A DNA stretch of 64,000 nt. It comes from an uncultured Planctomycetota bacterium (GTDB taxonomy: Bacteria > Planctomycetota > Planctomycetia > Isosphaerales > Isosphaeraceae). The notes under the pieces are model-generated. The model did no database searches. It was not told the DNA's origin and saw only the letters and a program-made list of their open reading frames with translations. Positions 24,645 to 43,215 of this stretch are shown here, one piece after another. The stretch covers positions 1,568,001 to 1,632,000 of the forward strand of contig CAWGMQ010000006.1 of assembly GCA_963823665.1 (NCBI GenBank), written 5' to 3'. The first letter of the stretch is position 1. Every line of letters begins with the position of its first letter. Position numbers and translations under genes: made by a program.

Positions 24645-25463
24645 TTATTGTCCGGCGGCGATCCAGCCTACGAGGATATCGTAGATCGCGTGCGTGCCGA
24701 CGGCGACTCCGAAGCCGCGCAGGACGAAGACCCAGGCGAAGAAGACACCCGCCATCCAGCGGAAGATAAAGGCGAACCAGGTGAACGGCTCGCCGGGCAT
24801 TCCCGCGTGGTGCGCGAGCGCGAACAGCAATGCCGATCCCGTTACCGCGAGCGTGCTGGCCAGAACTTGTGGTGCCTGCAAGAGTCGTAGCACGCCAAAG
24901 AAAACTGGGACGAGGATCAAACGGAACAGGGTCTCTTCATAGACGCCAGCACCGATGTATCCGACCAGCGACGCGACGTACGGCGACTCTTTCACCGGCA
25001 CGAGTGCCAGCACGGCGGTTTCGTGCTGCTCGAGGTAGGAGAAACCGGCGTCGATCAACCGGCTGATTCCGATGAGCATGACCGCCCACACCAAACTTTC
25101 GACGGCCATTCCTGCGAGGATTCCGGGTGAGAATCTCCATTCGCGATAACTCACGACCTGCCATCCCAGGAGGATCACGACGAGCAACAGCGGCAAGAGC
25201 CAGCGGTCGTCGAGGCCTGCGGAGGCGAGCATGCTGCGCATCCAGGTGTCGGCACCGGTGCGGAGCTTGCCGGGAGTCGGTCCTCCCAGCCAGATCACCG
25301 CCCATTCATAGCCGATGACAAGAGGCGCAACCAGAAGGAGCGAGGGAAACGGCCGCCGGGTGGCTGTCCAGTACGACGTCGGCCGCCCGTCGGCGAGCCA
25401 ATCGGCCGTCCTGGCGCCTCGAGCGTTCCAGCGAGTGCGAAGCGGAAGTTTGCGTGATTTCAT
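24645..25463 (-). CDS. CPBP/Abi family intramembrane glutamic endopeptidase
   Basis: EETLFR, FALAHH, HAIYD motifs; multiple TM segments. Confidence 0.9.
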   Translation of the reverse strand: MKSRKLPLRTRWNARGARTADWLADGRPTSYWTATRRPFPSLLLVAPLVIGYEWAVIWLGGPTPGKLRTGADTWMRSMLASAGLDDRWLLPLLLVVILLGWQVVSYREWRFSPGILAGMAVESLVWAVMLIGISRLIDAGFSYLEQHETAVLALVPVKESPYVASLVGYIGAGVYEETLFRLILVPVFFGVLRLLQAPQVLASTLAVTGSALLFALAHHAGMPGEPFTWFAFIFRWMAGVFFAWVFVLRGFGVAVGTHAIYDILVGWIAAGQ

Positions 25464-25770: not shown

Positions 25771-27169
25771 ATGCCGCGGGTTGGTCTGTTTGTCGCGATT
25801 GCTTGCGTGTCCTTGTCTGTATCACTCACCGGATGTTCTGATGCTTTCAATGCCGGTCCGCTCGAGTATGTTGAAAGCGAGGCGATGACCAAGGAGGTCA
25901 CAGGGGGCAAGGCGAACCTCTCGAAGAGCCCGATCATGCGGGAAAAGGTTCGCAAGGCCCTCAAGCGTCTCTACGGCGACTCGCCGCAGCACATCAAGGT
26001 TCCGCCTGGCTCGGGGTTTCCGCTCGGGGGTCTTTACCTGGCGAGCTACGTACAGGAGGGCGAGGGGGGGCAAGCCAAGTATTTCCGGCTTTATGAAGAT
26101 AAGGCCGTCGACGTGCCGACCAAGGTCGCTCATGACAGTTATCCGGCCGCCAAGCCGCAGGCGGGCGGATACAGCCTCTATCGCCGCAACTGCCTGCACT
26201 GCCATGGTGTGTCCGGGGCCGGCGACGGGCCGACCGCACCGTTTCTCTATCCGACGCCGCGCGACTATCGCAAAGGCATCTTCAAGTTCACGTCGACGCC
26301 CAGCGGCAAGCCGCCGCATCGGAGCGACCTGCGGCGCACGATCTCGAACGGCTTGCACGGGACGTCGATGCCGGCGTTTCACTCGCTGATGACGCCCGAC
26401 GGAAATCGAGCAAGTGATCGACTACGTGATTTTCCTGAGCATGCGCGGCGAGTCGGAGACGCTCTTGATCGAGGAAGCATTCACTTCCGACGAGAAAGAT
26501 CCGAATGCGTTGTCGGACGACATTGTCAAGGATATGGTCACGAACGGCGTGTTCAACAAGTGGAAGCTCGCGGAGACCATGCAGAGCAATCCTCCCAGCC
26601 CGCGCACGCCGCCGACTCCCGAAAGCGTTGAGCGCGGGCGGAATCTCTTCCTGGGGCGCACTTCGGAGAAGCTGGAATGCTCCGGTTGCCACGGGGCGCT
26701 GGCGATGGGCGACGGCCCCAGCTTCGCTCCCCAGGAGCTTTTCAACGAGGTGATATTCGGGGGTAACCCCAGCGAGCGCCAGGCGCGATTGGAAGCACAC
26801 CTGGCCGACATGCGATCAGGCAAAGACGAAGCAGAGAAGCTGAAGAACAAAGACAAAGCAGAGAAGCTGAAGGCGCTCTGGGACGCCAAGAATGACGATT
26901 GGGGCAACCCGCTTCGTCCGGCTAATTTGAACCGCGCCGTTTACAAGGGGGGCAGGCGGCCGCTCGACATTTACTGGCGCATCGCCAAAGGGATCAACGG
27001 CGCGCAGATGCCGGCGCATTACCCGTCGCCGCTTCAGGATGAAAAGAAAGTTTGGGACCTGGTGAACTTTGTGCTCGCATTGCCTTATCAGCCAGAGCTT
27101 TTGAGGGATGCCCCCCCTGCCCCGACAACCCCCGCAGCCGTCACCGCATCTCGTGAGCCGGCGCGATGA
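25771..27169 (+). CDS. Di-heme c-type cytochrome, probable lipoprotein (frameshift ~26400)
   Basis: LTGC lipobox; CLHCH and CSGCH with GTSMP/GAQMP axial Met motifs. Confidence 0.88.
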
Positions 27170-27294: not shown

Positions 27295-28116
27295 GTGCGT
27301 TACTGGAGCATCCTGTTCGGGCTTGCCGCCGTTTTCGCCGTCGGCTGCTTCGTCTACTCGCCATTCTCGAGCGACTGGTGGATGCCGGTGGCGGGAACCC
27401 CTCCGCACGTGATCTCGAAGTTCGGCCGCGAAATCGACAGCCTCTACCTCCTGATTCTCTTCATCACCGGCGTCGTCTTCATCGGCACCCAGATCGTCTT
27501 CGTGGTCGCGTGCTACCGTTTTCCGGATGAGCGCGATGCCCAGGGGCGGCCGGTTCGCAAGGCCCAGTACTTCCACGGCAGCCAGAGGCTCGAGGTGATC
27601 TGGACGATTCTCCCGGCCTTCATCCTGGTCTTCATCGCGTTCTACCAGTTGGGAACGTGGACGAGCATCAAGTTCCGCAGCGCCGCTCCGAGGGTGCCGC
27701 CGCTCGCCGAGGTCACGGCACGCCAGTTCCAGTGGGTGATTCGCTATCCGGGCCCCGATGGAAAGTTGAACACGAGGGACGACGTATTCGCCGTGAACGA
27801 CCTGCATTTCGTCAAGGGCAAGCAGGCACTCATCTATTTGAGGTCGTCGGACGTGATCCATTCGTTTTACTTGCCGCACATGAGAATCAAGCAGGACGCG
27901 GTACCTGGTCTCTTGATTCCGGTGTGGTTCGATTCCGACACGGCGGGTGATTTCGAGCTAGTCTGTGCGGAGCTTTGCGGCTGGGGCCATTACAAGATGC
28001 GCGGCAAGGTGAAGGTGCACGAGACTGAAGCTGAGTTCGACAAGTGGATGAGCGAGCAGATTGAAGAGCAGAACCGGAGCCAGCTCAGCATGACCGACGG
28101 TTCGCAAGGGAGATAA
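27295..28116 (+). CDS. coxB: Cytochrome c oxidase subunit II
   Basis: LEVIWT, QFQW, DVIHSF, CAELCGWGHYKM CuA ligands. Confidence 0.95.
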   Translation: MRYWSILFGLAAVFAVGCFVYSPFSSDWWMPVAGTPPHVISKFGREIDSLYLLILFITGVVFIGTQIVFVVACYRFPDERDAQGRPVRKAQYFHGSQRLEVIWTILPAFILVFIAFYQLGTWTSIKFRSAAPRVPPLAEVTARQFQWVIRYPGPDGKLNTRDDVFAVNDLHFVKGKQALIYLRSSDVIHSFYLPHMRIKQDAVPGLLIPVWFDSDTAGDFELVCAELCGWGHYKMRGKVKVHETEAEFDKWMSEQIEEQNRSQLSMTDGSQGR

Positions 28117-28121
28117 GGCGG

Positions 28122-30035
28122 ATGAGTTCTGAACCGACAGGCGGCGGATCGCATGGTTCTGCCCCGGACGACCATGGTCACCAGGGGAGCCATGGTCATT
28201 CGGACGGCAACGGCCACGCCGGAGCGCACGATCACGCCGGCGGCCATGACGAGCACGACCACATTCACCCTGCGCCTTCGACCTTTCTCACCCGCTATGT
28301 CTTCTCGACCGACCACAAGGTCATCGGCATTCAGTTTCTGACCTCGGGCTTGATCTTCTTCGTGATCGGCGGCTTGGCGGCGATGGCCGTTCGCTGGCAG
28401 CTTGCCTGGCCGTGGAAGCCGATGCCGTCTGCTATCGAGACTGCTCTGGTCGGACCCTTCGCATGGCTATCAGATGCCGCCGGAGTTCTACAACAAGCTG
28501 TTCACGATGCACGCCACGATCATGATCTTCTTCGTGGTGATTCCGCTCTTGACCGGGGCCTTCGGCAACTTCCTGATCCCGCTCATGATCGGGGCGCGGG
28601 ACATGGCGTTCCCGAAGCTGAATATGTTCTCCTACTGGTTCATGCCGCCGGCGATGATCTTCATCACGTATTCCTTCTTCGTGGAAGGAGGGTCGGCGGA
28701 AGCCGGCTGGACGAGCTACCCGATCTTGACGATCGCGCGGTGGGCGACTCCCGGGTCGTTGAACGGGCAGACTTTCTGGCTGCTGGCGCTACTTTGCGCC
28801 GGGATCTCGTCGCTGCTGGGGTCGATCAACTACATCACGACGATCGTGATGCTGCGTGCGCCCGGGATGAAGATGTTCCGGATGCCGATGACGGTGTGGG
28901 CCATGTTCATCACGGCGCTTCTTGCAGGCGTTTGCCCTGCCGGTACTGACCTCGGCGCTTGATCATGCAGCTTCTGGACCGGGTGGCCGGGACGAACTTC
29001 TTCAGCCCGGTGGGCTGGACGGTGGCGAATGCACCGCCGGTGGTCGGCGGCGGCGGCCCGATCCTGTTTCAGCACGTGTTCTGGTTTTACTCGCACCCGG
29101 CGGTGTACGTGATGATCCTGCCGGCGATGGGCATGGTCTCGGACATCATCGCGACGTTTTCGCGCAAGCCGCTCTTCGGCTACAAGCCGATGGTCTTCGC
29201 GATCGCCGGGATCGCCGGGCTGGGCTTCATCGTCTGGGGCCACCACATGTTCCAGTCGGGGATGAACCCGGCCTTGGGCGCCACGTTCATGCTGTCGACG
29301 ATGATGATCGCCCTGCCGTCGGCGATCAAGGTGTTCAACTGGCTGGGCACGATCTGGGGGGGCCGACTCCAGTTCACCTCGGCGATGCTCAATGCCCTTG
29401 CGTTCGTGACGATGTTCATCATCGGCGGGCTGTCGGGAATCTTCATGGCGGCGACGCCGGTGGATATCCATATTCACGACACGTACTTCATCGTGGGCCA
29501 CATTCACTACGTGCTTTTCGGCGGCAGCATGTTCGGCATCTTCGGCGCGATCTATTACTGGTTCCCCAAGATGTTCGGGCGAATGATGGATGAGCGGCTG
29601 GGTATCATCCATTTCATCTTGACGTTTATCTTCTTCAATGGAACGTTCTTCCTGATGCACATCATCGGGATGCATGGCCATCCTCGCCGGATTGCCGATC
29701 CCAATACGTATCTCTACCTGCAAGGCGCGGGGATCGTCGGCATGAACCAGTTCATGACCATCAACGCCTTCCTGCTGGGACTGGCGCAGATCATCTTCGG
29801 TTACAACTTCGTGCACAGCATTTTCCTCGGGCCCAAGGCGTCGGAAAACCCCTGGCACGCCAATACGCTTGAGTGGGCGACGAGCTCACCGCCGGCCCAC
29901 TACAACTTCGCGCGGATCCCGACGGTCTATCACGCGCCTTATGAATACAGCGTGCCTGGTGTTGACGAAGATTATCTGCCGCAGACGGTTCCCCGGCCGG
30001 CTTCGGCGGGGCCTCTTGATCCGGTGATGGCGTGA
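28122..30035 (+). CDS. coxA: Cytochrome c oxidase subunit I, A2 type (frameshifts ~28430 and ~28930-28960)
   Basis: STDHKVIG, TMHA, FWFYSHPAVY, VWGHHM, HDTYFIVGHIHY across ORFs 28122, 28402 and 28959. Confidence 0.95.
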
Positions 30036-30174: not shown

Positions 30175-30215
30175 TGTGGGGAACTTGATGTGTTCGTTTG
30201 CTTGAAGAAAGTTTG

Positions 30216-31222
30216 ATGACCTTCGAGAAGCCAACCAACTTGTCCGACCCCATTGATGCCCCGTATCGCCGCGTTGCGCACTGGATGGCTCTTGGTGCGG
30301 CCGTCTTCACGTTGCCGCTTCTGTATGTGGGCGGCTCGGTGACGACGTATCGGGTGGGGCTGGCTGTTCCGGACTGGCCGGAGACGTTCGGGATCAACAT
30401 GTTCCTTTTCAACATGTGGGAACATCCGTTCGGCGTTCGGGTCGAGCACAGCCATCGTCTTTACGGGGCTGCGGTCGGGCTGTTCACGCTTGATTCTGGC
30501 CGGCTGGCTGCTCGTCTTCGAGCCGAGGAAATGGATGAAGTGGCTGGGCCTTGCCGCGGTGGCAACGGTGATCGTTCAGGGTGTGCTGGGCGGCACGCGA
30601 GTCACGCAGACATCGACGATTCTGGCAGCCGTTCACGCCTGTGTCGGTCAGGCATTCTTCGCGCTCATGGTAGCACTGTGCGTCTTCACCGGCCGGCGGT
30701 GGCAGAGCCCGGTCGGTACGCGGATCGAATCGGCGTGGCTGAAGCCGCTGGGCTGGGCCATCGTCGCTCTTGGTGCCTGCTCAGATCATGCTGGGAAGCT
30801 GGCTGCGGCATTTTGGGACGTGGCAGGCGCTGGTGAATCACGCGTTCGTCGCGCCGGTCGTTCTGGTGTGCTGTCTGTTTCTGGCATTCGTGGTCGAGCA
30901 GAACAGGGCGAACTGGGCGCCGCTTGTTCCCGCGGCGCGGGCGCTGGGGCTTATGGCCGCTGTTCAGGTTGGGCTGGGAATCGGCTCGTTCATCGCGTTG
31001 CTACCGTTTGACGGACTGGCGAGAACGGTGACGTTTTACCAGGCGGTGACGCGGACGGCGCATCAAACGAGTGGGGCACTGCTGCTGGCGGCGGCGGTGG
31101 TGTTCCAGTTACGATGTCTCCGCCACGTGACGAGCGTGCGGCGGTTCGCGCGGAATGCGGAAGAGTTGGTATCATGTCCCGAGGCGGATCCGGTTGCAAT
31201 CAGTCGGGGGGCATTGGCGTGA
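30216..31222 (+). CDS. ctaA: Heme A synthase COX15/CtaA (frameshifted)
   Basis: GGSVT..GLAVPDWP, EHSHRL, QGVLGG.RV, VHAC, TAHQ. Confidence 0.85.
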
Positions 31223-32165
31223 AGTCGATGGCGTCGGTCGAGCCATTTGGTCTGGCTGCATCGGAGCCCGGGGCCTTTGTGTCGGTATTGGCGAGCCGCG
31301 CCATGGCTTATCTTTCACTCACGAAGCCGCGGCTGGTGGTGCTGGTGCTGGCCACGGTGGCGGCCGGGTTCTTTCTGGGCGCGCGGTGGGAGTTTCGGCC
31401 GGTGGCGGTGATGAGCCTGGCCGCGACGCTCGTGGGAACGGCGCTCGTTGCCGGCGGGGCTGGTGCGCTCAATCAATGGCTTGAACGTGACCGCGACGCC
31501 CTGATGCGGCGGACGGCGGGCCGCGCGTTGCCAAGTGGGAGGATTGCAGCCCGGCACGCGTTGCTTTTCGGCGGGCTGCTCGTTGCGGGCGGGACGGGCG
31601 TGCTGTTGCTGGGCGCGGGCTTGACTGGCGGCGCTGGTCGCATTTCTGACAGCGGTCCTTTATGTGTTCGTCTATACGCCGCTGAAAACGCGAACGACGC
31701 TCAATACGCTGGTCGGCGCGATTCCGGGTGCGTTGCCGCCGCTGATCGGCTGGGCGGCGGCGGCCGGGCGGCTCGGCCCAGAAGCCTGGACGCTGTTTCT
31801 GATCGTGTTTCTCTGGCAGTTCCCGCACTTTCCTGGCGATTGCCTGGATTTATCGGGAGGATTACCGGCGCGCCGGATTTCGCATGCTGACGGCCGAGGA
31901 CGCTGCGGGGACGAAGGACGGGCTGCCAGGCGTTTTCGTATGCACTGGTGCTCGTGCCCGCCGGGTTTGTTGCCCGCGATCATTGGATTGGCGGGCCCGG
32001 TCTACTCGGTCGGGGCGCTCTTGCTGGGGCTGTTTCTATCTGGCCGACGCCGCGCGGTTCTGGCTGGGCGCCAGGGATTCACGGGCCCGGCGGTTGCTCT
32101 ATTCCTCGTTCTTGTATCTGCCGGCGATCCTGATCTTGCTGCTGGTCAATCCGATGCCTTATTGA
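31219..32165 (+). CDS. ctaB: Protoheme IX farnesyltransferase (frameshifted)
   Basis: [50 protein letters not shown]. Confidence 0.92.
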
Positions 32166-32220: not shown

Positions 32221-33182
32221 ATGGCTTCCGAGACACACGGTTCGAGTGCACCCGGGCCCTCCGGCGCAGGCGGTGACGCAGCCGTGCCGGCGCATCATGC
32301 GCCGGTCTCGCCGGGCAAGGTGGCGATGTGGCTGTTCCTGGCCACGGAGGTGATGTTCTTCACCGGGTTGATCGGATCGTACATCGTGCTTCGCGCCGGC
32401 AGCGGCCACAATCGGCCTACACGCAACCTCTATTCGCCTGCGCACTCGCTTGCCGGACTGGAAGACACGCACGGCATCTTGCTGAATTCGGCGGGTGCTA
32501 GCCACGACACGGTCGAGCACATCCTGCACACCGAGGCGGGCCTGAACGAAGAAGACGCGAAGAAGCTGATTGAAGAGGCGCATCATTCGAAGGCCTTGAT
32601 CAGCGGGCTGAAGCCCGAGAAGGCCAAGTCGCTGCTGGCGGCAGCTCAAAAACGCCGGGGCGGATGTGCAGGATGAAGAGTTGAAGACGCACAAGTGGCC
32701 CGCGCCGTACGACGAGCTGACCAATCCGCTGGCGATCAATCTGACCGCGATCAATACGTTCATCCTGATCTGCTCGTCGCTGACGATGGTGCTGGCTCTT
32801 GTCGGCGATTCAGGACGGGAAGAAGAAGAAGGGCTCGGCGCTTCTGCTGGCGACCGTGTTGATCGGTTCGTGTTTCTTGTCTGTTCAGGTTTACGAATAT
32901 TATCAGTTGATGGTCGGCCACCATTTCCCGGCGGGGATCAGCGCGACCGGGCACTTCCGGCCGTCCGTGAGTTTATTCGCCTCGTGTTTCTTCACGATGA
33001 CCGGCTTCCACGGGGCGCACGTCACTGGTGGCGTGATCTTGCTGTTCGTCATCTTCATCCGGTCGGCCGTATTCGGCGACTACTCGAGTACCAACTACGC
33101 CCCGGTTGAGCTGGCGGGCCTCTACTGGCACTTCGTCGACCTGGTGTGGATTATCTTGTTCACGATTGTTTACCTGCTTTAA
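32221..33182 (+). CDS. coxC: Cytochrome c oxidase subunit III with inserted soluble domain (frameshifts ~32641, ~32795)
   Basis: [40 protein letters not shown]. Confidence 0.92.
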
Positions 33183-33244: not shown

Positions 33245-33635
33245 ATGGCCGATCTGACAAAGATGACGCCGGGTGAAGATTGCCGAGGAACATCGGACCG
33301 AGGCGCATGCGCCCTACTGGTGGATCTGGTTCTCCTTGCTGGTGCTGACGCTGATCGAGTACTACTATGCGATGTTTGCGCAGAGCGTCTTCCTGTTTCT
33401 GCTCCTAGGCCTGCTCTTCCTGGCGGTGGTCAAGGCGGGGCTCGTGGGTTGGTTCTTCATGCACTTGAAGTTCGAAGGGAACTGGGTCTACATCATGATC
33501 GTGCCGGCATTTGTGCTGGCGACGATCTTTGTGCTGGCGCTCATGCCCGACATGACGCTCAAGGAAAACGCCGACGACGTTCCGATCGAAGAGACGTCGT
33601 ACGAGGTTCCATTTCAAATAACCCGCTCGACGTGA
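33245..33635 (+). CDS. Cytochrome c oxidase subunit IV family protein (frameshift near the start)
   Basis: LLVLTLIE, KAGLV..FFMHLKFE. Confidence 0.85.
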
Positions 33636-33666: not shown

Positions 33667-34966
33667 GTGACCAGGTCATATCGTCTGGGTATACAGATTG
33701 TGCTGGGGGCAATCTTGCTCGCGGCGGCGGGTACGCTGGCGTGGGCGGCTCGCCGCGCTCCCGTGCCTGCGCGCGCTGCCGAGCAGCTTCCGCCCGGGTC
33801 GTTTCCGCTGGGCGAGTTTCGCCTGGTCGAGCGGTCGGGGAGAAACGTTTCAGCAGGCCGATTTCCGAGGGCGCGTCTGGGTCGCCGGGTTCATCTTCAC
33901 GCGGTGTCCGTTGTCGTGCCCGCGGATTTCGAGCGTGATGAAGGACCTTCAGCAGCGATTCGACGGCACGAGCGTGTTGCTGGCGAGCATCACGGTCGAC
34001 CCCGAGTACGACACGCCGGCGGTGCTCACTCAATATGCGCAGAAGTTCGAGGCCCGCCCGGATCGCTGGTGGTTTCTGACCGGTGCCAAGCAGCAGATCC
34101 ACGAGCTGGTGCAGGGCCGGTTCAAGCTCGCGATGCAGGCGGCATCTCCGGCCGAGAAAGCCGCAGGTTCGGAGGCGATCACGCACAGCGATCGGCTCGC
34201 GCTGGTCGAAGATGGCCAGGTCGTCGGTTTTTTCGAGTCAAACAGCGCGGCTTCGCTGGAATCGTTGGTCGCCGTGGCGAGTCGGCGCGCGCTGCCCGCG
34301 TGGGTGCGGTACTTGCCGACGCTCAACGCGAGCTTGAACGGTCTGTGCGCGGTCTTGCTCATCGCCGGCTGGATCTCGATTCGCATGCGAAACACGCCGC
34401 AACGATTGGAGTCAATTGGCTCGGCGGCGACGACTGGCGAGTTGCGTGAACGTCCCGTCGTGCGCGCCCACGTGGCGATCATGCTCACGGCCGTGGGCCT
34501 CTCCGCGCTGTTCTTGACCAGTTACGTGGTCTATCACAGCCAGGCGGGGAGCACCGCATTTCCACACGAGGGGCCGCTTCGGGTTTTGTATTTCACGATC
34601 CTTCTTTCCCATCTCACGCTGGCAATTGCGGTGATTCCGCTCGTGAGCCTGACGTTAATTCGCGCAATTCGCGGTAACTACGCAGGGCATCTTGCCGTTG
34701 CGCAACTGACATTTCCGATCTGGCTGTACGTCTCGGTCACGGGCGTGGTGATCTACGTCATGCTCTACCACCTGCCGATACCGTCGAGCCTGCGAACGGG
34801 GTTAATATCTAAAGCGGTCACGACAAACGACTTGCTGATTGTGCGAGACGGCGTTCGGCGACCTGGCAAACTGTTCGTTCCGACAGCTTTGCGTACGAAC
34901 AGCCGCCGCAATGCGCCCCGCTTGGAGATCATTGCCGCCTATATTTTTACGCGGGTGCGTTTCTAA
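33667..34966 (+). CDS. SCO copper chaperone fused to DUF420 (frameshift ~33850; 3' end uncertain)
   Basis: FIFTRCPLSCP, SITVDPEYDTP, ITHS, then LPTLNASLN...PIWLYVSVTGV in one frame. Confidence 0.85.
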
Positions 34967-35337
34967 GGTCAGCGGCCTGCAATCGTAAGAGAGACAGGAC
35001 GAGCGTGCAGTACCAATTGTGATGGTAGAGCAACATCATCCATGCAAGCAATCATTCGTGTTTTCGCCCGATTTTGTCGCCAATGCAGGAATTCAGCCAT
35101 TCACGCATGCGTCCAAGCAGTTTTTTCTTGACGACGCACATGGGCGCTGCGACGATAATTGGCTGGCTGAGTTTTCGGGCTTGCGGCAGTCCGATGCAGC
35201 CGCGAGCATCGTATACTTACTGACATTCGTAGCAGGCGGGGAGAGTTCACAGCGAGGCGGACGCTTCCGGGACGAGTGCAGATTGAAAGGGAGTGTGGTT
35301 TGGCCACGATGGCGGCCGGCCGAGAGCAGACAGCAGC

Positions 35338-38300
35338 ATGATTGGCAATCGCGGAAACCGGAGTCGAATCGAATTCAGGGCTCGCCGTTTGCGGCGTCGG
35401 CCCACGTGTGAGCTGATGGAGCGCCGTCTGGTTCTGTCGAGTTTCGTTGTCACCAGCACGGCGGACAGCACCGCGGCGAACACGCTGCGCTGGGCGATAC
35501 AGGAGGTCGATGCCGGGACGGGCCCGGGGTCGATCAGTTTCGATATTCCCGGCAACGGGGTGCAGGTGATCGCGCTCGAGCAGCCGCTGCCTGCGATCAC
35601 GAATCCGGTTGTGATCGATGGGACCACGCAGCCGAAGTATTCAGGCTCGCCGCTGATCCAGGTCGACGGCTCGGGGCTGCACACACCGGACAACGACGGC
35701 CTGGTTCTCTCGGCACCCGCGAGCACGATCGAGGGGCTTTCGATCGTCGGTTTTTCCGCCGGGTCGGGAATTCTGCTGAACGCGGCGGCGAATGGGACCC
35801 AGGTGCTGGCGAGCTACGTCGGCTTCTCGGCCGCCGCGGGACAGGCCAGTCCCAATCGCACCGGCATCTCGATTCTTGGCGCGTCGAACAACACGATCGG
35901 AGGCACGAGTGCGGGCTCGGGCAACGTGATCTCGGGGAACGATGGCGACGGGGTGCTGATCAATGCGGGTAGCGGGGTCGCCAGCAATAACGAGATCATC
36001 GGCAATCTGATCGGCACGAATCCGGCCGGCACCGTTGCCGTCGAAAACGGCGGTAGCGGCATCGACTTGATTGCGGCGATGGGAACGGGAATCGGACAGC
36101 CGGTGACGGGAGCGGGCAATGTGATTTCGGGCAACGGCGGCTGCGGGATCGAGTTGTTTGCGGGTGCCACGGGGACGATCATCCAGAACAACGAGATCGG
36201 ATTGGCGCTCGATGCGAGCTCGGCGCTCGGGAATGGCGGTGACGGCATCTACCTGAGCGACTCACCTTGGAATCAAATCGGCGGCACCGACAAGTTTGAC
36301 GGCAACCTGATCGGGTCCAATCACGGCAACGGCATCAATGCGCAGGGCAACTCTTCGAACACGCTGGTGGAAGGGAATTGCGTCGGCACCGATATCACGG
36401 CGACGCTCAACCGGGGCAATGAAAGCAACGGCATCGAGCTCGCATCGTCCTCGAACACAATCGGCGGCACGATCGGGGGTGCGGGCAACACGATTGACTT
36501 CAACGGTGCGGGGCAGTCGGGATCTGGCGTTCAACTCGTCGGCAGTCCCACGTTCGACCAGATCCTCTCCAACTCGATTTACGAGAATGCCGTCCTGGGC
36601 ATCAATCTGGGCAACGGCCCGACGCCGAACCACCAGCCGGGGACTTCGGGGCCCAACAATTACCAGAACTACCCGGTTCTGCAAGCAGCACAGAGCGATG
36701 GCACGCTGACGACCGTCCAGGGCAAGCTGAACGCCTTACCCAGCACGAACTACTTGATTCAGTTCTACTGCAGCGCAACGAGCTCCGCGTCGGGGTTCGG
36801 GCAGGGTCAGACGCTCATCGGTTCGGAGCTTGTACCAACTGATGGGAGTGGTTTGGCGACCGTCGTTTACCCATTGTCGGTGGCCACCACGCCGGGCCAG
36901 TGGATCTCGGCCACGGCGACTGATCCGGCCGGCGATACATCGGAATTCGCGCTCGACCAGGAGATCCAGGGCCAGATCAATCTGATCGTTACGGGCACGG
37001 CGGCTCCCTCGCCGGTTGCGATCGGCGGGCAAATCACGTATACGCTCACCGTGCAGAACGCGGGGACGATTTCCGCTACTGATGTGACCCTCGAGAACCA
37101 GCTTCCGGGCGGCGTCACATTGGTTTCCGCGATCGCGAGTCAGGGATACGTTCAACCGGCGGTTTCCAGCTCACAGATCGCCAATTTGCAGACGATCGCT
37201 GCCGGTGGCACGGCGACGCTGACAATCGTCTGCCAGACGAGCACGAACACGCAACTCGGCAAACTGGTCGACACGGCAAGCGTGACAAGTGACCAGACCG
37301 ACCCAACGCCTGCGGATGAATTCGTCTCGATCAGCGACATAGTTGCCACAACGGCTGATCTCTCTCTCCGGCTCACGGCTGATACGAGCTCGGTGCTCGT
37401 GGGGTCAAACGTGACTTACACGATCACTGCAACCAACGGCGGTCCGCAGAGTGCGAGCAACGTCAGCGTGACTCTGCCGATCGTCTCCGGCGAGGCATTC
37501 GTCTCCTCGACTTCGGCAAATTCGTCGATCGTGAATGGTCAGGTTGTGGTCAATCTGGGCGACGTTGTCGGTGACGTCAAGCGCGAGCGTGCAGGTGGTT
37601 GTCCAGGCCGTCACGGCCGGTACGTTGAGCGAAACCGCGACGGTCACGAGTGATAGTATCGACACCAATCCGTCCAATAACACGTCCACGGTGAACATCC
37701 AGGTCAACCCCGCCGCCCTTTTGCAAGTGGCGGTGGCGGCATCGCAGTCTCCCGTCGTTCTCGGCAGCGACTTCGAGTACATCGTGAACGTGACCAACGC
37801 GGGTCCCAGCGTTGCCACCGGGGTCATCTTGAGCGACACGCTGCCTGCGGAAGTCGAGTTCGTTTCGGCAAGCGATGATCAGAATGTGGCGGCAGCTTTT
37901 TCTGGCGGAGTCGTGACGTTGTCGCTCGCAACGCTGCAAGTGGGCGCGACTGCGACATTGAGCATCGAGGTTACTCCTGGAGGTGTGCCGGGGTCGAGCT
38001 TGACTGATTCGGCCTCTGTCATCGAGCAAGTGGCCGACCCTGACCCGTCCGACGGGACCGCCACGCTGGTGACGCCGGTGGTCGGTGTGAGCGATCTGGC
38101 GATCACGGCCACCGGTCAGCAGTCTTCGGTATACGTCGGTCAGAACATCGAATACCTGCTGCACGTTTCCAACGAAGGGCCGGACGACGAGCCCGATGCG
38201 GTCGTGACGTGGGTCGTGCCTGCCGACGCGACCTTCGTCTTGGCCGATTGCCCCCAGGGGAGTGGAACGACCGTCACTCAAACAATGGTAAGCGTGGATG

Positions 38301-40222
38301 TTGGTCCGGTCGGCTCAGGCGATGCCGTTGACCTCTCTTTTGTGGTCAATCCCCTAGCCGGTGCCGCCGGACAGTTCACGACGACGTTCGCGGTGCAGGG
38401 AGAGAATGTCGATCCCGTTTCTTCGAACAACACCGCGTCCGCAACGGTGCAGGTGACACCCTCGGCCGATCTCGCGGTCACGATCAATCCCGGCCGGGAT
38501 GGTCCGTTCGACGATTCGAGCTGGAGTTACACGGAGTTAATCCAGAACCTGGGGCCGTCGGACGCCACGGGCGTGGTCCTGACGTCGCCGTTGCCCGCCA
38601 ACATCTCGTTGATTTCGACAACGCCGAGCCAGGGAGCTGCGGTGAGCGTGCAGGCCGGGGTTGCGTCCGCGTCGCTGGGGGCGATTGCGGCCGGCCAGTC
38701 GGCGACGGTCACGTTTGTTGTGGAGCCGACCTCGGTCGCCCCGATCAACTTGTCGGCGTCAGTCGCCGGTGACCAGTACGACCCCTCGCTCGGCGACAAC
38801 AGTGCGGATTACACGGTTTCGACTGCACCTTCAGACGAATTGCTGATGAGCGTGGTTTCGCAATCCAGCACCGTCACAAGCGGCCAGAGCTGGAGCTTCA
38901 CTGCGTGGGTGCAGAACGCGGGGCCGGATCCGGCGACGAACGTGGTGATGACGATTCCGCTCGCCGGCGGTCTGGTGTTCGGCTCGACGGTGCCGAGTCA
39001 GGGGACGAGCAGCGTGAGCGGAACGGCTGTCGTCGCACAGCTCGGTGAAATCGAGCCCGGTTCGTCTGCGTCGGTGCAGGTCGTTGTGACGGCGACTGCG
39101 GTCGGCGCCATCACCCAATCCGCATCGGTCAGCTCGGCGGAGAACTCGCTCAACGTCAATGGACTCGAGGGCGGCATTGAAGTCAATGTCCTCGCATCGC
39201 CGGGGATCTTGCAGTTTGCCGCGGCGTCGTACTCGGTCACCGAGGATGCCGGCTTCGCCCAGCTTGTCGTGACCCGCACCGGCGGAGCGCGCGGAGCGGT
39301 GACGGTCGGCTATCAGACGGTCTCCGCCGGCGCGACTCCAGGGCTCGACTACGTAAGCACCTCGGGCACGCTTTCCTTCGCCGCAGGAGCGACTTCGGCG
39401 ACGATCACTGTTCCCGTGCTGGCCGATCCTTGGGACAACCAGAACGAATATGTGAGATTATTGCTCAGTTCTCCATCGGGAGGTGCGACCATCGGGTCGC
39501 AGGGAACGACGCTTCTGCAAATCGTCGATGTCGACCCCAATTACACGCCGCCCGAAGTGCAAAGCCTGACCTGGGGGGGGACGTCGCGCTCGATCACCAG
39601 TTTGACGGTCAGCTTCAGCGAGCCGCTCAACCCGCAGTATGCGATGATCCCGGGCGACTACGAGCTCGTCGCGCCCGGACTGGGCAACATGGCGGTTCCT
39701 CTGACGCCACAATCCTACGACGGCTCGACATTCTCGGTGACGCTGGTTCCTTCGGTCGCGCTTCCGTCAGGGCAGTTCTATTACATTCAGATCGTCGGCT
39801 CGGGCCCGAACGCGATCCGGGACATCGGCGGCAACTTGCTCGACGGTGCCGGCAACGGGAATCCTGGCTCCAATTATCAGGCGAGCTTCGCGCAGGGTAC
39901 TCAGCTCAAGTATGTCGACGGGTCGGGCAACAAGGTCTCACTCAAACTGACCGGCTCCGGATATATGGAGCAGGTGCGTGACGCCGCGGGCGATGGAGTG
40001 GTGCTCGACCTCGTGGGAGTGAAGGCGCACCACGCGACGCTCTCCGGCACGGTGAACGGGCCGGTCTCCCGCGCAGCGCGAAAGGCCAAGGCGGCGCATG
40101 CAACGGAGCTTGGCACGATCGAGGGACTGGGCAACTTCGGCGACGTCAATGTCCTGCTTAAATCGCCGCCGTTCTACGTCAAGTCCTATCCATTCCAGCG
40201 TCGTGGCAAGGGGGTTCTCTGA
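35338..40222 (+). CDS. Large secreted protein: parallel beta-helix, multiple DUF11 repeats, Calx-beta (frameshift ~37560)
   Basis: ELMERRLVLS leader; GNVISGN repeats; DL.....TY.I...N.GP..A repeats; LQFAAASYSVTE...VTRTGG. Confidence 0.88.
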
Positions 40223-40353: not shown

Positions 40354-40659
40354 GTGCAGTGGCTTGAGGTGAACGGTCCGGACACTTCGGAGAACGCTGC
40401 GGCGATGAATCGCAGAGTGAGTCGGGTATTCCTGGGTATCGCGCTCGCAATTCTCGTGGGCGCCAGCGGTGTGAGCGAGGTCCGGGCTTGCCCCAACTGC
40501 AAGGAGGCGGTCAATTCGTCGGAAGGTGAGGTTTCGAGTGCGGCGATGGGATATAACTGGAGCATCGCCTTGATGCTGGCCGTTCCGTTCTCGATGCTGG
40601 GAACGGGCATGTTAGTTATCCGCCGCGCCGTGAAGCGGGGCGTGCTGCCGGAGATGTGA
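40354..40659 (+). CDS. Small membrane protein with ACPNCK motif
   Basis: Signal-like N-terminus, CxxC and one TM helix; similar small genes accompany oxidase clusters (from recall). Confidence 0.65.
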   Translation: MQWLEVNGPDTSENAAAMNRRVSRVFLGIALAILVGASGVSEVRACPNCKEAVNSSEGEVSSAAMGYNWSIALMLAVPFSMLGTGMLVIRRAVKRGVLPEM

Positions 40660-41709: not shown

Positions 41710-41788
41710 TTCCGGGTTTGATTCTACAATCTAACGGCCAACCAGGTATAGACTCAGCTTCAAGCTGTGCGCTATGCTGGGTGTACAT

Positions 41789-41864
41789 CGGGGCGTAGCG
41801 CAGCTTGGATTAGCGCGCTTGCTTGGGGTGCAAGAGGTCACCGGTTCAAATCCGGTCGCCCCGA
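41789..41864 (+). tRNA. tRNA-Pro (GGG)
   Basis: CGGGGCG/CGCCCCG acceptor stem, CTTGC-TTGGGGT-GCAAG anticodon arm, GGTTCAAATCC T-arm. Confidence 0.96.
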
Positions 41865-41866
41865 TT
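41823..41866 (+). repeat. attL core (3' half of tRNA-Pro)
   Basis: TTGGGGTGCAAGAGGTCACCGGTTCAAATCCGGTCGCCCCGATT, identical to 57042-57085. Confidence 0.95.
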
Positions 41867-41935
41867 AGTCGAAAAGCGTTACAGCTAAAGACTTACAGAA
41901 ACTCGACGCCGAGATCGCGGAAGCCAAATACCCTA

Positions 41936-41962
41936 AGTTACGGGGTAGTCTACCCCGTAACT
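41936..41962. promoter_or_regulatory. Perfect 13-1-13 palindrome, putative integrase arm or operator site
   Basis: AGTTACGGGGTAG-T-CTACCCCGTAACT; half-site recurs at 56947-56960 near attR. Confidence 0.55.
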
Positions 41963-41997
41963 CGAAATGCAACCATGCACTTTGGGGGTTTTGAGCC

Positions 41998-43215
41998 ATG
42001 CGACCGAAGAACATCATTCCCACCTACCGACTCCACCAGGCGACCGGGCAAGCTCGTTGCGTCGTCAACGGCAAGACTCACTACCTGGGACCGTACGAAA
42101 GCCCAGAATCCCGGCGCGAGTATGCACGCATCCTTACCGAGCTGGCGGCCGGTAACGGGGTAGTCGCTACCCCGATTCCGGCTCCGTCTGGTACCACGTC
42201 AACGCCCGCCACGTCTGTCTTCGTCTCTGAACTCATCTTAGCTTACAGACGGCATGCGGCGGAATATTACGTCAAGAATGGTCGCAAGACTTCCGAAGTC
42301 GCGATCGTGAAGATGGCAACTGACGTCGTCCACGAGTTGTACCAGCAAAGCCAGGTGACGGAGTTCGGCCCTCTGGCGCTCACGGCATGCCAGCAAAAAC
42401 TCATCGATCAAAAGCTTGCTCGCTCGAGCGTCAACAAGCTGGTGAATCGAATTCGCCTCATGTTCAAGTGGGGTGTCGCGCACCAGATGGTGCCAGAATC
42501 CGTTCATCGGGCGCTTGAGTGCGTCGAGGGGCTTCGCAAGGGACGGAGCAAGGCGACGGAATCGAGAAAGATTCGTCCGGTTCCCGACCAGATCGTAGGC
42601 AAGGCAAGCCCGTTCATGCCGCGGCAGGTGGCTGCGATGGTGCAGCTCCAATCCTTGACCGGGTGCAGGCCCGGCGAAATCGTCATCATCCGCGGGTGTG
42701 ACCTGAACATGAGTGGCAAAATCTGGGAGTACAAGCCGGCGGCATGGAAAACAGAACATCACGAAGACGTTGCCGAGCGAGTGATCTACATCGGCCCGAA
42801 AGCCCAGCGGGTTCTCAAACCGTGGCTCCGTCCCAATTTGAGCGACTACCTGTTCAGCCCGAAAGAAGCGCTTGCCGAGCTCAATGCTGAGCGGCGTGAA
42901 AGTCGCAAGACGCCCGTCTATCCCTCGCATCAAGCCCGCTACGAGCGCGAGAAGGCCCGCCGAGGCCGTCGACCAGATCACGACCACTACACCGTGGAAA
43001 ACTACCGCCAGGCAATCGAGCGCGCTTGCGAAAAGGCCAAGGTGCCAGCGTTCAAGCCGAATCAGTTGCGGCATAGCCTGGCAACCCGGCTCCGTCGAGA
43101 CTTTGGACTCGAGGCCACGGCGGCGGTGCTCGGACATGAGGAATTGGAAACCAGCCAGATTTACGCCGAGAAAGACGCGAAGCTGGCCAAGCAGGTGATG
43201 GGCAAGATCGGTTAA
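41998..43215 (+). CDS. Tyrosine integrase
   Basis: TGCRPGE, QLRH, LGH and IY catalytic motifs; adjacent to attL. Confidence 0.96.
   Translation: MRPKNIIPTYRLHQATGQARCVVNGKTHYLGPYESPESRREYARILTELAAGNGVVATPIPAPSGTTSTPATSVFVSELILAYRRHAAEYYVKNGRKTSEVAIVKMATDVVHELYQQSQVTEFGPLALTACQQKLIDQKLARSSVNKLVNRIRLMFKWGVAHQMVPESVHRALECVEGLRKGRSKATESRKIRPVPDQIVGKASPFMPRQVAAMVQLQSLTGCRPGEIVIIRGCDLNMSGKIWEYKPAAWKTEHHEDVAERVIYIGPKAQRVLKPWLRPNLSDYLFSPKEALAELNAERRESRKTPVYPSHQARYEREKARRGRRPDHDHYTVENYRQAIERACEKAKVPAFKPNQLRHSLATRLRRDFGLEATAAVLGHEELETSQIYAEKDAKLAKQVMGKIG

Follow-up and report, generated by a model that had tools for sequence, protein, structure and literature searches.

Few membrane proteins are as conservative as subunit III of the haem-copper oxidases, whose role beyond stabilisation of the core is still debated. 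In its known topology, the loop that follows the first helix is periplasmic. The ribosomal protein bL12 (L7/L12) has a C-terminal domain (CTD), or head, that carries a factor-binding surface, to which we take I69, R73 and L80 to belong. According to passages of PMC10602876, EF-Tu is bound by K65 and K70, which like K81 and K84 are highly conserved; a mapping study of the factor-binding positions is cited in a passage of PMC3299993. Such heads are also found in other proteins: phage proteins, some with a bL12 domain embedded in them and some lacking it, are described in parts of Mizuno et al. 2019 (PMC6375957), and an 'L12-ClpS' domain is named in a membrane protein in a section of PMC12419801.

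The window, which is the whole 64,000-nucleotide stretch of DNA analysed here, comes from an uncultured planctomycete of the family Isosphaeraceae and encodes on its plus strand an oxidase operon in the order di-haem cytochrome c lipoprotein, coxB, coxA, ctaA, ctaB, coxC, coxD and SCO-DUF420. Frameshifts break several of these genes, as they would in an assembly prone to errors. The first (25771..27169) gives two cytochrome c matches, is itself frameshifted and encodes a probable electron donor; in a genome of the same genus it is a single 454-aa frame with two CxxCH motifs. It is followed by coxB (27295..28116; PF02790, PF00116), encoding a subunit II with a CuA motif and no fused cytochrome, and by a frameshifted coxA (28122..30035; PF00115, E 9e-91), encoding subunit I, whose YSHPxVY motif points to a type A2 oxidase by what we take to be the class rule. 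The haem A and haem O synthase genes, ctaA and ctaB (together 30198..32165, both frameshifted), were assigned from a weak PF02628 match, from their sequence and from an order kept in relatives. Beyond coxC are coxD (33273..33635; subunit IV, PF03626) and a gene for a SCO1/SenC copper chaperone fused to DUF420 (33698..34966; PF02630, PF04238). His/Gly-rich N-terminal tails occur on CoxA (28122-28330) and CoxC (32221-32310), presumably on the cytoplasmic side. A divergent gene for an Rce1-like CAAX protease (24645-25463, minus strand) precedes the operon and occupies the same place in many family members. On the other side are a large surface protein of DUF11-repeat/Calx-beta type (35293-40222, plus strand), apparently split by a frameshift; a small protein (40354-40659, plus strand) that looks secreted, has one membrane helix and contains a CPNC motif, and for which no family match exceeded the threshold; and a tRNA-Pro gene followed by a tyrosine integrase (41788-43215), a probable island boundary.

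The coxC (ctaE) gene (32221..33182, plus strand) encodes a five-helix subunit III into which a complete bL12 CTD is inserted. Its C-terminal piece matches PF00510, and indel errors break its frame in the assembly; the intact orthologue in a genome of the same genus (locus L002 of genome G001) is 319 aa long. The first transmembrane helix (32314..32394; residues 32-59 in the orthologue model) includes a FLATE motif with its conserved Glu, nearly invariant in our alignment A2. It is followed by the N-terminal arm, or stalk, of a family-specific extended loop (32395..32469), which insert-less family members also have and which is garbled in the window by three extra bases near 32414-32424. Next come the inserted domain (~32470..32674), about 68 aa long, acidic, and His-rich on its former factor-binding face, and the C-terminal arm (32675..32730), read from the frame translation, which includes the WP motif (32696-32701; W159 and P160 are invariant in A2) and runs into helix 2. 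An earlier reading of this DNA, made from the letters alone (the sequence-only reading), had placed the insert between the first transmembrane helix and the WP motif, as found here.

That reading had restored the frame by removing one base at ~32641. Alignment of the window DNA with L002 bears this out, with one extra base at ~32643 (feature 32641..32644) that splits the insert over two frames, but it also reveals one extra base at ~32797 and three near 32421, which had gone unmentioned. Neither the base at 32644 nor any of the three near 32414-32424 is present in a short-read contig that has only three other letters over window positions 32374-32760 and that carries loop, insert and WP motif in one continuous piece; short-read support for the corrected gene is this one contig, at depth 2.3. 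Since both the contig and L002 lack these four extra bases, the insert continues in frame into the subunit III sequence on either side, a continuity on which the sequence-only reading had made itself depend. The coxC frameshifts are assembly errors, and the second extra base (32795..32800, near the end of helix 2), absent from L002 and outside the contig bridge, is a probable one. Across 20 loci, the loop is intact and 97-136 aa long in 13, 31-35 aa long in 4, and frameshifted in 3, the window among these. One RNA-library contig from a relative covers part of the insert and is by itself no sign of transcription.

The broken window fragment alone gives no PF00542 match in Pfam and no PDB match. 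Intact relatives do match in the HMMER comparison that the sequence-only reading had proposed: PF00542 is listed for 10 of 13 intact loops, 6 of them above the curated cut-off, and in a larger set for 32 of 41 inserts at E<=0.01, Pfam ClpS being listed for 4 of the 41. A profile of the relatives' inserts aligns with the E. coli L7/L12 CTD over 64 ungapped columns (E 7e-13), and the hhalign probability is 97.9% against the genome's own rplL and 4% against its own ClpS. The AlphaFold2 model of the same-genus orthologue has five membrane helices, with an L12-type domain (strand-helix-helix-strand-helix-strand, pLDDT 86-96) confidently placed between helices 1 and 2 and superposing on 1CTF with an rmsd of 1.8 A over 69 residues. 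For the loop modelled alone, the top VIA match is L7/L12 (8YEQ, Z 10.4) and the second is ClpS (Z 9.6). Foldseek matches the orthologue model to subunit III of caa3, bo3 and aa3 oxidases, and PF00510 scores 71 bits on the orthologue. The by-eye assignment of the insert to the L7/L12 CTD is thereby confirmed by family matches, profile alignment and model together. Only the CTD is present (profile positions 3-66), with CoxC sequence on both sides and without the N-terminal dimerisation domain and hinge; a separate rplL adjoins rplJ and rpoB in the same genome. Because the loop after helix 1 is periplasmic in the CoxIII topology and the loop after helix 2 is lysine-rich and basic in A2, the insert probably faces the periplasm, in the first outer loop. 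In one lineage (L011, L131, L132, P0068), an extra helical insertion of about 36 aa occurs between two helices of the L12 insert. Two weak PF00542 matches elsewhere in the genome (L022, L023) are a short two-helix motif in small unrelated proteins, located behind a membrane helix in one and before a zinc ribbon in the other.

A survey of planctomycete CoxC, which the sequence-only reading had also suggested, recovers the insert in most Isosphaeraceae and a short first loop in 11 orthologues from other planctomycete families, none of which has the domain. Among 105 Isosphaeraceae genomes at least 70% complete, classed from match spans and in a few cases from partial matches, the insert is present in 76 and absent in 25 (12 genera), and 4 gave no orthologue. 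The sequences read comprise 48 intact inserts, some from genomes below 70% completeness, and 16 of the 25 insert-less genes; insert-less coxC still has loop arms of 30-35 aa, and the gene order of the oxidase operon does not differ between insert-bearing and insert-less relatives in the family. In 227 genomes from other families of the class, a survey of limited sensitivity gave no full-loop match; it scored only 16 candidates for each genome and failed to find G115, a known carrier, so that its blanks mean 'not found' and not absence. The 11 matches that it gave outside the family are rplL-like by span and score. Of 80 subunit III loci from a genome collection, four have the domain, all planctomycete, and none of the 75 from other groups does. 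The fusion is intact in 118 of the 120 database homologues parsed, and carriers by name include Singulisphaera sp. GP187 (P0068), Tautonia marina (P0275) and a Paludisphaera soli record (L155). About 67 of 120 listed database proteins carry both Pfam labels, and the fusion architecture is therefore already visible in databases. The carrier family consists of soil and peat planctomycetes; sequencing runs with small shares are no habitat evidence.

The fusion is real and old. A tree of 41 rows, built from CoxA, CoxB, the CoxC core and CoxD after removal of paralogues, fragmentary loci and some further loci, unites the Isosphaeraceae in a single clade (100/100). The insert-less lineages require two changes (bootstrap 2-4), with insert-bearing lineages diverging outside them; the data do not reject a single loss (p-AU 0.26). 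The simplest history, weakly supported at the deep nodes, would be one gain near the family root followed by one to three losses.

As to the source of the domain, the insert profile gives its highest or nearly highest scores, of up to 65 bits, to rplL heads of the family itself, and the best mobile copies score equally well. A tree built on 66 columns from 14 inserts, 15 rplL heads and 24 mobile repeats, the last chosen by likeness to the insert and perhaps including some duplicated or misassembled rplL, makes no choice between a direct rplL origin and an origin via a mobile copy. A search of 1.84 billion representatives gave 4709 matches at E<=0.001, and almost all of the best 150 are proteins with two to eight bL12 heads. 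The 76 of these 150 that were Pfam-scanned have TIR, kinase, dynamin, LRR, dockerin and fn3 partners, among others, and 42 proteins of the 150 bear a crude signal-peptide signature. Mobile heads are thus common, many with a signal peptide, and a bL12 head outside the ribosome, or even outside the cytoplasm, is not unusual. The proteins catalogued as P0121-P0270 have tandem heads, many with signal peptides or lipoboxes, include fusions to a KAP NTPase, and mostly keep the factor-binding lysines even where apparently secreted.

The sequence-only reading had noticed that several basic positions of the window insert were replaced by His or acidic residues, and this holds family-wide in the 48 inserts. 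With factor-binding positions in E. coli numbering, and with K or R, and I or V, scored as kept, K65 is kept in 7 inserts, I69 in 9, K70 in 6, R73 in 19, L80 in 1, K81 in 2 and K84 in 14. For 30 planctomycete rplL the corresponding figures are 96-100%, and for mobile repeats, whether secreted or not, they are mostly near 80%. In 116 repeats from the 42 proteins with a crude signal-peptide call these positions are kept at 77-87% (K81: 42%); since these keep the surface, export alone does not force its loss. All 48 inserts are net negative, with a mean charge of -5.2, compared with +0.1 for rplL, -0.4 for 415 mobile repeats and -0.7 to -1.2 per 68 aa for the other periplasmic domains of the operon. 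Histidine makes up 4.3% of the inserts (about three per insert), 0.9% of the 415 mobile repeats and none of rplL, and is unevenly distributed, at 6.9% of positions 63-93 versus 1.6% of positions 94-120. At least one His falls within 88-93 in 38 of 48 inserts, and at least two within 81-93 in 31 of 48. The histidines and most of the charge sit on the helix pair that is the former factor-binding face.

No His, Cys or Met is invariant in the 48 inserts, and the invariant ligand set of a dedicated metal-binding domain is absent. The best candidate, His92, occurs in 26 of 48 (its 87% among 112 close database matches is an overstatement by comparison), and 3 of 48 have no His at all. The only near-invariant positions are core or glycine residues (G55, G62, L110 and G114, in 47 of 48). 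Against the same-genus orthologue, dN/dS is 0.13 for the insert and 0.05 for the core. Between genera, identity is 34-48% for the insert and 76-86% for the core, and a crude dN/dS for the insert is 0.44-1.2, with dN > dS in two of six pairs and dS near saturation. These values are those of purifying selection within the genus and of selection that appears weak or unmeasurable between genera.

A second difference between the two kinds of operon lies in the di-haem cytochrome. Its second haem domain has at least two His within 12 aa at 11 of 14 parsable insert-less loci, versus 2 of 39 insert-bearing ones, and a loop there has a median length of 85 aa without the insert and 50 aa with it. Counted by genome, this loop has more than 20 extra residues in 17 of 23 insert-less versus 6 of 73 insert-bearing genomes; the exceptions, by match span, are 2 of 23 insert-less genomes without a cytochrome insertion and 3 of 73 insert-bearing genomes with one longer than 50 aa. 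This swap amounts to one or two independent contrasts, for which a sign test has no power, and may be taken as a lead only. The cytochrome insertions of insert-less loci L038, L039, L042, L092, L094-L100 and L105 are 30-210 aa long with a Gly/His-rich motif, and the longest (L039, L096) have the look of folded domains, with no Pfam or NCBIfam match. In insert-bearing L106-L108 and L110, a different insertion of 70-110 aa occupies the same cytochrome site, with at most a weak winged-helix match (L110). The charges of insert and cytochrome are not complementary (rho +0.24, p 0.17, 34 loci), and the most acidic inserts (-8 to -11) include partners of the most acidic cytochromes (-26 to -33). Long unrelated insertions in other planctomycete families affect the second outer loop in 6 of 11 CoxC orthologues (L048-L052, L054) and CoxB in two cases (L044, L047); these are largely helical-looking. 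A Pfam scan of the cytochrome, CoxB and second-loop insertions named none of them, and an OmpA-like identity suggested by eye for one of them was dropped when no match was found.

Tentatively, at rather less than an even chance, we favour a reading in which the insert is an accessory His/carboxylate cation patch, for copper or protons, at the outer face of the oxidase. A bL12 CTD copy, closest to the rplL of the family itself, would have entered an already extended loop once near the family root, where its adjacent N- and C-terminal strands would seat it as a cassette on a short stalk, and would later have been lost in one to three lineages. Its former factor-binding helix pair would have become an acidic, histidine-rich periplasmic patch that traps cations, with low specificity, next to the oxidase. 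It would most probably hold copper for the CuA and CuB sites and the SCO chaperone of the operon, or buffer protons at the outer face, in either case as an accessory and not a catalytic element. In lineages without the insert, the His-rich loop of the di-haem cytochrome may do the same job. What suggests this reading is the loss of the factor-binding residues, the acidity of every insert, the clustering of His on one face and the within-genus dN/dS, together with an operon that encodes both SCO and the CuA subunit and the much greater frequency of the His cluster on the cytochrome of insert-less loci. The fold may be metal-capable, as a structural neighbour is a ClpS entry with the title (and only the title was used) 'with bound Ni2+'. 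The cation patch is weakened by the want of an invariant ligand, by fast divergence between genera and by the one or two contrasts behind the cytochrome swap, and, as planctomycete oxidase subunits accept large unrelated insertions freely, His-rich loops may be a general habit. A fuller version, in which an exported ribosomal head whose face went from Lys/Arg to Glu/His is a periplasmic copper- or proton-capturing appendage of the oxidase, interchangeable with the His-rich cytochrome loop, seems unlikely as a whole.

It is somewhat improbable, though a serious possibility, that the domain is a passenger trapped in a tolerant loop, doing nothing specific and selected only for folding and exportability. 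Its lysines would then have decayed once free of translation, aided by high GC and a bias against basic residues in outer loops, and the rarity of precise deletion would explain its persistence. The restriction of near-invariance to core and glycine positions, the fast-diverging surface, the lack of the insert in 25 of 101 family orthologues with an otherwise identical operon, the unrelated insertions of other families and the promiscuity of bL12 heads (in the matches here and in parts of Mizuno 2019) are all as such a passenger would have them. However, GC-driven drift should favour Lys to Arg, and the face went to Glu and His in all lineages; one half of the domain has four times as much His as the other, the periplasmic domains nearby in the operon are close to neutral, and insert length is nearly constant in three quarters of the family. 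Quite unlikely, in our estimate, is a docking or spacer module, an acidic head over subunits III and IV that steers or holds the di-haem cytochrome c lipoprotein, SCO or a supercomplex neighbour. The changed face is the protein-binding face of bL12 (for K65 and K70, passages of PMC10602876), the same operon opens with the cytochrome gene, and insert loss goes with growth of the cytochrome loop, as if the same space were occupied; yet the charges of insert and cytochrome show no complementarity, and no surface residue is invariant, as at least one would be expected to be in a tight interface. The sequence-only reading had called the insert a co-opted docking or metal-binding domain. Co-option is supported by long retention, purifying selection within the genus and charge reversal on one face, while both a fixed-geometry metal site and electrostatic docking to the cytochrome have lost ground, the one to the inconstancy of its histidines and the other to the absent charge relation. 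A ClpS-like peptide sensor, the L12/ClpS fold having re-evolved a pocket for a free N-terminus (of a processed subunit, for example) as an assembly check, is very improbable. ClpS is the second-best fold match and is listed by Pfam for a few inserts, and both have a His near the end of the second helix; the sequence kinship, however, is with L12 and not with the genome's ClpS, and the acidic NDD/DDQD motif after strand 1, which with the His of ClpS presumably forms the N-end binding pocket, is replaced in the inserts by the glycine turn of L12. An assembly chimera or chance resemblance, for which the many indels of the window and the unmatched raw fragment might have spoken, is refuted by intact fusions at 48 other loci and in nearly all parsed homologues, the named carriers included, and by the independent short-read contig that joins the insert to CoxC.

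The CoxC-bL12 fusion was not found in print, in a search that did not extend to subscription papers, supplementary files or InterPro pages. Subunits III that bear an additional outer domain were known before, as were mobile bL12 heads; new here is their combination, with a head that gave up its canonical surface. It is the clearest case in this analysis of a mobile head without the factor-binding surface, and a folded domain of ribosomal origin on the outer face of an oxidase is a dated case of domain co-option across a membrane. Natural deletion variants and cultured carriers exist, and the insert offers a handle on the uses of many unstudied non-ribosomal bL12 modules. If it is a capturing appendage interchangeable with the cytochrome loop, planctomycete oxidases would have an unrecognised accessory function filled by unrelated insertions in different lineages; if it is only a passenger, it would be a neat but modest case of domain shuffling.

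Compared with the ribosomal bL12 CTD (PF00542, 1CTF), the insert has the same fold, length, hydrophobic core and glycines in an ungapped alignment, and is closest to Isosphaeraceae rplL. It differs in being embedded in a membrane protein, probably on the periplasmic side, and in mostly lacking K65, I69, K70, L80, K81 and K84, with a net charge of -5 and about three His; neither of the marks of a functional bL12, a dimerisation domain with hinge and a basic factor-binding surface, is present. With the mobile bL12-CTD modules (those in parts of Mizuno et al. 2019, PMC6375957, and of PMC12419801, and the tandem arrays found here), it shares the condition of a free head in another protein, present or absent among homologues, and many of these have signal peptides. 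Those modules mostly keep the basic surface, whereas the insert is a single copy in a loop of a core respiratory subunit, inherited through a family and reversed in charge. ClpS N-degron adaptors (PF02617) have the same fold (Z 8-9.6), but there is little sequence kinship, and their pocket motif is absent from the insert. The host protein is in all other respects a subunit III of A-type haem-copper oxidases (CtaE, CyoC, QoxC; PF00510), with the five-helix core, the Glu of helix 1, the WP motif and the C-terminal motif, in an operon where coxBA, ctaAB, coxD and SCO accompany coxC; unlike other subunits III, it has a first outer loop of about 100 aa that holds a folded domain.
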